This document shows positions 1,177 through 1,270 of a stretch of DNA of 6,374 bases, in pieces. A program made the translations under genes and the position numbers. The stretch spans positions 1-6,374 of the IMG/VR virus record IMGVR_UViG_2609459825_000013; one strand, 5' to 3'. The notes beneath the pieces are model-generated. The model worked only from the letters and a program-made list of their open reading frames with translations, searched no databases and had not been told where the DNA came from. The stretch comes from a virus (lineage: Monodnaviria > Loebvirae > Hofneiviricota > Faserviricetes > Tubulavirales > Inoviridae). Numbering within the stretch: the first letter of the stretch is position 1; the number at the start of each line of letters is the position of its first letter.

Positions 1177-1270
1177 AGTGCGCATAATGTGACACGCGTT
1201 ATGTTGAAAAGGCCGCTGCGATACTCTCCACCGCAGCGGCCTTTTTATACATAACGTCATTGTGCGCACT
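1177..1270. other. Candidate XerCD-dependent attP: two inverted dif-like sites flanking a GC hairpin (CTXphi-type forked-hairpin architecture)
   Basis: Site 1 (+, 1177-1209) is AGTGCGCATAA/TGTGACACGCG/TTATGTTGAAA. Site 2 (minus orientation, 1244-1270) reads AGTGCGCACAA/TGACG/TTATGTATAAA on the bottom strand. Against E. coli dif GGTGCGCATAA-TGTATA-TTATGTTAAAT (from memory), XerC arms match 10/11 and 9/11 and XerD arms 9/11 and 8/11, but the central regions are 11 and 5 nt rather than 6. The sites are symmetric around the 1211-1241 hairpin. Confidence 0.55.
1211..1246. terminator. Rho-independent, probably bidirectional terminator downstream of the secretin gene
   Basis: Perfect 10-bp stem GGCCGCTGCG (1211-1220) / CGCAGCGGCC (1232-1241) with an 11-nt loop, followed by TTTTT (1242-1246) on the + strand and preceded by AAAA (1207-1210), which gives a U-tract for leftward transcripts. 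Confidence 0.7.

Follow-up and report, generated by a model that had tools for sequence, protein, structure and literature searches.

The 6,374-nt window analysed here, the whole of the stretch given above, covers most of the genome of one filamentous phage (inovirus). Just behind its gene IV, positions 1175-1272 of the + strand form a 98-nt forked hairpin built from two inverted copies of a dif-like sequence. We consider it very probable that this hairpin is the folded single-stranded DNA (ssDNA) attachment site, or attP, of a temperate Escherichia coli phage that has no recombinase of its own and mimics the chromosomal dif site for XerC and XerD, the recombinases of its host. The narrower claim, that the element is an XerCD/dif attachment site, is held with higher confidence than the whole model. 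An earlier note on this DNA had put the region forward as a candidate for a single-strand attP of the kind used by phage CTX, and the comparisons made in silico support that candidate. The idea of single-strand integration is not new, as it has already been proposed for CUS-1 and Ypf; the window adds a second phage lineage and no new mechanism.

The window matches 99 of 5,426 complete E. coli genomes. In the best match, E. coli 100416, the phage is present as a two-copy tandem prophage with a unit of 8,739 bp, located at the dif locus between hipA and the yde fimbrial operon remnants, and the annotation of this 8,739-bp unit shows no integrase. At the left junction (attL) the chromosomal sequence ending in ggtttatgttGGTGCGCATAA continues directly into TGTGACACGCGTTATGTTG (also read as TGTGACACGCGTTATGTTGAAAAGG), so that the host XerC arm is followed by the phage spacer; the core of this junction is host GGTGCGCATAA joined to phage TGTGACACGCG. 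At the right junction (attR) the phage sequence ending in catcAGTGCGCATAA (the phage side is also read as aacatcAGTGCGCATAA) is followed by TGTATATTATGTTAAAT, that is, the phage XerC arm AGTGCGCATAA is joined to the spacer and XerD arm of the host, and dif is regenerated. The junction between the two prophage copies is identical to site 1 of the window (described below), with the gene IV flank in front of it. These junction sequences place the crossover within window positions 1178-1190, a segment that spans the canonical XerC cleavage position 1187/1188, and they are as expected for an XerC exchange after 1187. Because the window itself shows the phage-to-phage junction, its source is a tandem prophage or a circular form of the phage.

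The same pattern of attL and attR was found in five further loci (L003, L021, L026, L028, and L063). A 140-nt attL probe, consisting of the hipA-side flank and the hairpin, was covered over at least 80% of its length in 128 of the 5,426 genomes (about 2%), and a crossover with dif inside the hairpin is found in independent genomes. Related prophages at chromosomal dif with hybrid junctions, as anticipated in the earlier note, thus exist, and they have no integrase. Some left junctions (L026:12005 and L012:1401) carry AGTGCG(T/C)ATAA right after the chromosomal flank instead of the canonical chromosomal GGTGCGCATAA; this suggests that a phage-type XerC arm was left behind at dif when integration or replacement took place there in earlier rounds.

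E. coli dif, as read from the right junction of the prophage and from L003, is GGTGCGCATAA TGTATA TTATGTTAAAT, and both sites in the window can be aligned with it. Site 1 lies on the + strand and comprises a putative XerC-binding arm at 1177-1187 (AGTGCGCATAA, 10 of 11 positions matching dif, with the predicted XerC cleavage at 1187/1188), an 11-nt central region at 1188-1198 (TGTGACACGCG), and a putative XerD-binding arm at 1199-1209 (TTATGTTGAAA, 9 of 11). The latter arm is also identical at 9 of 11 positions to the XerD arm of CTX attP1, TTATGTTGAGG (PMC3089051, Table II). The central region opens with TGT, the first three nucleotides of the dif central region TGTATA. Site 2 lies on the - strand and has an XerC-like arm at 1260-1270 (AGTGCGCACAA, 9 of 11), a 5-nt central region at 1255-1259 (TGACG), and an XerD-like arm at 1244-1254 (TTATGTATAAA, 8 of 11). 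The coordinates and sequences of this inverted pair, 1177-1209 on the top strand and 1244-1270 on the bottom, had been given in the earlier note together with the non-canonical spacer lengths of 11 and 5 nt, and all of these were confirmed. When the XerC motif GTGCGCATAA was searched with at most one mismatch, four matches were found in the window against 0.33 expected, a number reached in none of 200 shuffles; the best two are the two arms that pair with each other, and the site 2 arm differs from the motif by one mismatch.

As ssDNA, the + strand from 1165 to 1285 folds with a free energy of -41.1 kcal/mol, compared with a mean of -13.6 kcal/mol (standard deviation 2.65) for shuffled sequences, corresponding to a z score of -10.4, and none of 200 shuffles folded as well. 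The hairpin is retained when 350 nt of context are folded, and the same segment of the - strand gives a weaker fold of -37.5 kcal/mol. The complete structure contains 40 bp, a 6-nt bulge, and an 11-nt loop, and it is delineated by the ssDNA fold, by the inverted repeats I1-I3, and by pair counts over 42 sequence variants. In the first helix, 1175-1189 pairs with 1258-1272, which brings together the two XerC arms (1177-1187 with 1260-1270, including one T.G pair), the nucleotides flanking them, and the first two nucleotides of the spacer. Next, TGACAC at 1190-1195 is bulged out, and 1196-1220 pairs with 1232-1257 with one bulged T, a helix that includes the two XerD arms (1199-1209 with 1244-1254). 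Of the site 1 central region, TG at 1188-1189 and GCG at 1196-1198 are paired, so the effective paired spacer is 5 bp (2 + 3) plus the 6-nt bulge. A long + strand hairpin with XerC and XerD duplexes split by a bulge had been predicted in the earlier note and is borne out by the fold, in which the interruption is an asymmetric internal loop; the effective central region of 6-8 nt expected there was not what we found.

The tip of the hairpin is rich in GC. The perfect 10-bp stem noted previously between the sites (GGCCGCTGCG at 1211-1220 with CGCAGCGGCC at 1232-1241) was confirmed and extends to a perfect 14-bp stem-loop, inverted repeat I2, formed by 1207-1220 and 1232-1245 around an 11-nt loop at 1221-1231. 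T runs follow on both strands, with CGCAGCGGCC followed by TTTTTAT on the + strand and GGCC followed by TTTTCAAC on the - strand. Judging from these features, the tip probably terminates transcription in both directions, from gene IV on the + strand and from a convergent open reading frame (ORF) at 1276-1431 on the - strand. A terminator scan with a loop limit of 8 nt did not call the stem-loop at 1207-1245, because the 11-nt loop exceeds that limit, and this result is not counted against a terminator.

The structure is conserved among relatives. We collected 42 distinct hairpin variants from a pattern scan of IMG/VR and from E. coli loci and placed them on the structure of the window, where 93.7% of the cells are standard pairs, compared with 28-54% when the partners are slid by one to three columns. 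Changes on both sides were seen in 15 of the 40 pairs, none of 500 shuffles reached the observed value on any of five measures, and RNAalifold independently gave the same architecture. The bottom spacer is 5 nt long in all 42 variants, the bulge varies in sequence with a length of 5-6 nt, and the top spacer opens with TGT in 39 variants, the remaining three being rows of a second type of hairpin (type B) with GGT or GAC. In the rows that represent phage-to-phage junctions, covariation extends to the two or three nucleotides bordering the XerC arms on their outer side (TCA/TGA, CCA/TGG, GCA/TGC, and ACA/TGT), and the first two spacer nucleotides are kept paired by compensatory changes (columns 15/91 and 16/90). 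The + strand hairpin is more stable than its - strand counterpart in 39 of the 42 variants (means of -31.9 and -29.5 kcal/mol, respectively), because T.G pairs that are conserved on this strand correspond to A.C in the complement. Type B, represented by L022:4928-5019 and L027:2965-3057, is distinct in sequence and has another GC stem, CGGGTGCGGCG, but the same geometry of 11 and 5 nt; its XerC arm is altered on both strands in a compensated manner, GCGTATAA pairing with TTGTACGC. A plain terminator or a duplex site would not need the outer covariation, the paired start of the spacer, the constant 5-nt spacer, the TGT, or the + strand bias.

Some relatives carry a type B hairpin upstream of the XerC arm of type A, at a distance of 40-93 nt, and so have two complete attP-like hairpins per phage. 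Loci related to this arrangement are L022:4928-5019, L027:2499-2598 and 2965-3057, L063 at about 5525-5625 (with attR just downstream), and L053, and E. coli UTME-13 has, between prophage copies, two units of about 460 nt that both end in a type B hairpin. The type B spacer opens with GGTATA or GACATA, both of which mismatch E. coli dif, and GGTATA is the spacer of V. cholerae difG. This second paralogous hairpin could perhaps confer a second target specificity.

The junctions are equally compatible with a duplex attP of the VGJ type, in which site 1 in the double-stranded replicative form would be the substrate for one exchange of a strand pair by XerC and site 2 would only be part of a terminator hairpin. 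The crossover indeed lies in site 1 only, and VGJ-type phages likewise depend on XerC and on replication (PMC4246890). They use host XerCD at dif, exchange strands with XerC first, and follow the same logic of attL and attR. However, the spacer of site 1 is 11 bp long (10 in some variants), whereas dif has 6 bp and VGJ attP 7 bp (PMC3089051; PMC4246890). A terminator requires the GC stem alone, yet the variants retain the outer stem, made of the XerC arms and two or three flanking nucleotides, and show covariation in it (helix 1; junction rows of types A', B, and B'). A sibling phage, described below, closes gene IV with a plain short hairpin, and the + strand consistently forms the better hairpin. 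Whereas VGJ has one 29-bp duplex attP with a 7-bp spacer that is used reversibly, the present phage has two dif-like sites with duplex spacers of 11 (10 in some variants) and 5 bp, neither of which is workable, paired as a hairpin. For these reasons we regard a duplex attP as unlikely and favor the folded single strand as the substrate.

Several points weigh against the folded-strand model. The attL and attR sequences would be identical for ssDNA and duplex integration, so the junctions cannot separate the two routes. At 5 bp, the paired spacer falls short of the 6-8 bp found in known XerCD sites and of the 7 nt in CTX attP2. The XerD arm motif alone gave two matches in the window against 1.57 expected, which is not significant, and the XerD arms are individually weak; this motif by itself was not used as evidence, and the evidence rests on the combined arms, the fold, and the comparative data. 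The conservation among the 42 variants is inflated in two ways: the search pattern fixed CGTTATGTTGAA and CATAACG, which are part of the XerD stem, so that those pairs cannot vary, and in alignment rows derived from attL the top XerC arm is chromosomal and not from the phage. The packaged + strand is presumed to be the gene-sense strand as defined by the replication protein (Rep), an assumption based on gene orientation.

A natural replacement of the hairpin in close relatives links it to dif. In 28 of the 5,426 E. coli genomes we found a sibling phage whose Rep is about 98% and whose gene IV is 98% identical to those of the window, but in which window positions 1124-2094 are replaced by a gene for an IS110-family DEDD transposase (PF01548 and PF02371) that ends 3 nt before the Rep gene. 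An example is L091:7027-7992 in E. coli WP8-S18-ESBL-07, and some records annotate the product as an 'RNA-guided transposase'. The sibling prophage is present as a single copy between hcxB and ybiB, its gene IV ends in a short ordinary hairpin, and no dif-like arms were found in it. Phages with the hairpin are thus at dif, and siblings without it are elsewhere with a recombinase of their own, which ties the hairpin to dif. Among the outcomes that would count against its proposal, the earlier note had listed related prophages integrated elsewhere by an integrase of their own; such relatives do occur, but only as the IS110-bearing siblings that lack the hairpin, and we rejected them as a refutation on that ground. 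Several strains carry both forms, the hairpin phage and the IS110 sibling.

The siblings also bear on whether the hairpin needs any connection with integration. In Ff phages, an imperfect hairpin after gene IV serves as a terminator and packaging signal. The element in the window resembles that of Ff (f1/M13) in being a long imperfect + strand hairpin directly after gene IV, and on either strand a T run comes after its GC stem; in principle, the element could be a purely morphogenetic and transcriptional hairpin, that is, an Ff-like packaging signal and gene IV terminator, possibly part of the minus-strand origin, with dif-like arms that are a relic of recombination. Ff hairpins have no dif-like arms, though, and Ff does not integrate. 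The crossover with dif inside the hairpin in independent genomes, the arms that remain dif-like with TGT beside the XerC side in nearly all variants, and the retention of the coat, assembly, and secretin genes in the siblings without a hairpin, which argues against an essential packaging role, make this explanation very improbable. A packaging or terminator role may nevertheless coexist with the attachment function that we propose.

The forked-hairpin attP of CTX, a phage of Vibrio cholerae, was reportedly described by Val et al. in 2005. XerCD recombine this hairpin, attP(+), with dif through a single exchange catalysed by XerC, and replication resolves the product (PMC3089051; PMC4246890). 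It is formed by two inverted sites, attP1 (AGTGCGTATTA TGTGGCGCGGCA TTATGTTGAGG) and attP2 (AATGCGTATTA TACGCCA TTATGTTACGG), and the choice of target is set by Watson-Crick or wobble pairing beside the cleavage point (PMC3089051). The window shares with CTX the inverted dif-like sites with non-canonical spacers (12 and 7 nt in CTX, 11 and 5 nt here), of which the long-spacer site bears the crossover and opens with TGT(G) like the central region of dif, and the XerD arm of the long-spacer site begins with TTATGTTGA in both phages. In addition, both lack a phage recombinase, regenerate dif at one end, form tandem prophages, have a Rep of the RstA/GPA type, and carry leftward regulatory genes beside the site. 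In contrast, the hairpin of the window is much more compact, about 98 nt long with 34 nt between the XerD arms, where CTX has about 150 and about 90 nt, respectively. A perfect GC stem, probably a terminator, forms the tip of the hairpin in the window, and only 5 bp are paired in its spacer, as against about 7 in CTX. The host here is E. coli with the dif spacer TGTATA, and the site is known from sequence, whereas that of CTX is known from biochemistry.

By analogy with CTX, we infer that the substrate is ssDNA, that XerC alone catalyses the exchange, and that the product is resolved by replication and is irreversible. In the packaged or rolling-circle + strand, the two inverted sites would anneal into one hairpin offering an XerC-arm duplex (1177-1187/1260-1270) and an XerD-arm duplex (1199-1209/1244-1254) with 2 + 3 bp and the 6-nt bulge between them. 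Host XerC and XerD would bind this dif mimic, and XerC would cut the + strand after 1187 and swap it with the top strand of dif in the chromosome. The phage strand would then present TGT to the bottom strand of dif, stabilising the exchange, while the incoming dif strand would meet TG on the bottom strand of the hairpin. With a phage spacer of TGT followed by GAC, a dif spacer of TGT followed by ATA, and a bottom spacer of TG followed by ACG, the bases at the cleavage point can pair according to the rule established for CTX (PMC3089051). Lack of homology in the remainder of the central region would make a second exchange impossible, and replication would turn the intermediate into a prophage. 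Its left end would consist of the host XerC arm, the phage central region, and the hairpin, now duplex and inactive; its right end would consist of the phage XerC arm and an intact dif that could accept further copies, producing tandem arrays. The tandem arrays observed are consistent with such an ssDNA-based, XerC-only, irreversible route and are not decisive.

Other phages that integrate with XerCD were also compared. TLC-type features are a degenerate XerD arm, the phage protein XafT, and an exchange started by XerD; here the XerD arm of site 1 matches dif at 9 of 11 positions and the crossover lies on the XerC side. No Pfam match to an XafT-like activator was found among the ORFs of the window, the scan covering the window and not the whole phage. 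CUS-1, from E. coli O18:K1:H7, and Ypf, from Yersinia pestis, are listed as CTX-type elements whose attP has the features for direct integration of ssDNA (PMC3089051; PMC4266046; table in PMC4246890), and Ypf has an inverted pair of XerC/XerD sites and forms tandem arrays with an imperfect dif between copies (PMC3089051; PMC4246890; PMC4266046; PMC3442271). The phage of the window resembles them in its integration at dif, its inverted site pair, and its tandem copies with an imperfect dif between them (PMC4266046).

We made the CUS-1 comparison on CUS-1-like E. coli prophages that carry a PuvA gene (L026 and L028). Homology with these prophages is confined to the hairpin, window positions 1178-1269, with 83-88% identity and the same geometry of 11 and 5 nt; the remaining genome is non-homologous at the DNA level, with a Rep of the II/X family instead of the GPA/RstA family and different coat and regulatory genes. 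Within the hairpin, the central region is TGTACGACTCG in the CUS-1-like phages and TGTGACACGCG here, and the bottom XerC arm is GGTTCGCACAA there and AGTGCGCACAA here. We considered whether the window could be CUS-1 or Ypf itself and rejected this, since those phages have a II/X-family Rep and PuvA, the window has a GPA-family Rep, and only the hairpin is common to both.

The hairpin thus occurs on phages with a GPA/RstA-type Rep and on CUS-1-like phages with a II/X-type Rep, relics of it are present on plasmids, and an IS110-family recombinase takes its place in the siblings. This distribution raises the possibility, which we advance tentatively and think rather doubtful, that the hairpin of about 92 nt acts as a self-contained attachment cassette, able to pass from one inovirus backbone to an unrelated one, whose 5-bp spacer plus bulge falls outside the 6-8 bp rule for XerCD. 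In contigs of species-representative genomes, a search with the pattern GCGCATAATGN{6,14}TTATGTN{30,60}ACATAA gave seven matches, which were not inspected; this number is about the chance expectation and none of the matches is named as enterobacterial, meaning that the pattern was too strict or that such prophages are absent from species-representative genomes.

The right two-thirds of the hairpin, consisting of a partial XerD arm, the GC stem, and site 2, is frequent on large E. coli plasmids, where it was found in 484 places. One copy, L002:4001-4069 on plasmid p2 of E. coli EC28, is about 84% identical to window positions 1200-1269 and adjoins a truncated IS200C and a gene of the STM4504 family, at a position downstream of efflux genes of the MacB/TolC type. 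The plasmid copies look like relics of an attP without site 1. Plasmid Xer sites are dif-like with non-canonical spacers, and the abundance of the hairpin relics on plasmids would fit a site of the cer or psi kind, at which XerCD resolve multimers of the replicative form and chromosomal integration is a by-product. We give this explanation hardly any credence, since no architecture of accessory sequences was seen, spacers of 11 and 5 bp do not fit the range of 6-8 bp in cer and psi, the copies on plasmids are cut short and have no site 1, and prophages at a regenerated dif in about 2% of the genomes indicate that integration is a recurrent outcome.

The gene layout of the window is that of a filamentous phage. 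The 3' part of gene IV (1-1123, + strand; Secretin PF00263, E = 7.5e-25) is the last gene ahead of an intergenic and regulatory block at 1124-1844, which contains the hairpin and two small leftward ORFs (1276-1431 and 1495-1710, - strand) that have the position of the CTX and Ypf regulatory genes and no Pfam match. They are followed by a small ORF at 1845-2090 and by the gene for the rolling-circle Rep at 2092-4092 on the + strand (Phage_GPA PF05840, E = 1.1e-48), whose product shares about 30% identity with RstA of CTX and with Rep of fs2 and VFJ. Further downstream are a gene in the gene V position (4123-4548), small membrane ORFs, a gene in the position of the major coat gene (4881-5123), and gene III (Phage_Coat_A), which starts at 5184, contains a long Gly/Ser repeat, and runs to the end of the window. 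From 5790 to 6374, up to the window end, gene III consists of a near-perfect tandem DNA repeat of about 78 nt that encodes a Gly/Ser linker (GGSGSGSGGSSGS...), and the number of repeats varies among relatives, as seen from multiple offset matches.

A megablast search of the whole window against the phage collection gave no match. The viral contig L011 (IMGVR_UViG_2619619131_000002, 8,173 nt) matches window positions 1-1123 at 100% and 1845-6277 at 99.2% identity; it starts at the equivalent of 1845 and stops at the equivalent of 1123, and is thus without the hairpin and the regulatory block, possibly because the assembly was broken where the junction is repeated. In the comparison with the closest E. 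coli relative (L001:7800-8240), window positions 1432-1844, comprising the second leftward ORF and the divergent promoter region, are not conserved, although the hairpin and the Rep gene on either side show 97-99% identity. This divergence suggests exchangeable immunity or regulatory modules, comparable to the rstR types of CTX.

These results do not overturn the current understanding of phages that exploit XerCD, and their main value lies in a correct annotation of prophage ends and in a compact model substrate. The comparison confirms that a CTX-style design, probably for single-strand integration, exists outside Vibrio, in a compact form of 98 nt that is homologous across phage backbones and widespread, occurring at dif in about 2% of complete E. 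coli genomes. The set of variants, with its constant 5-nt spacer, near-invariant TGT, and variable bulge, is a ready mutational map of how XerCD would read a folded site. The swap of the hairpin for an IS110-family transposase gene illustrates how filamentous phages exchange their integration modules.

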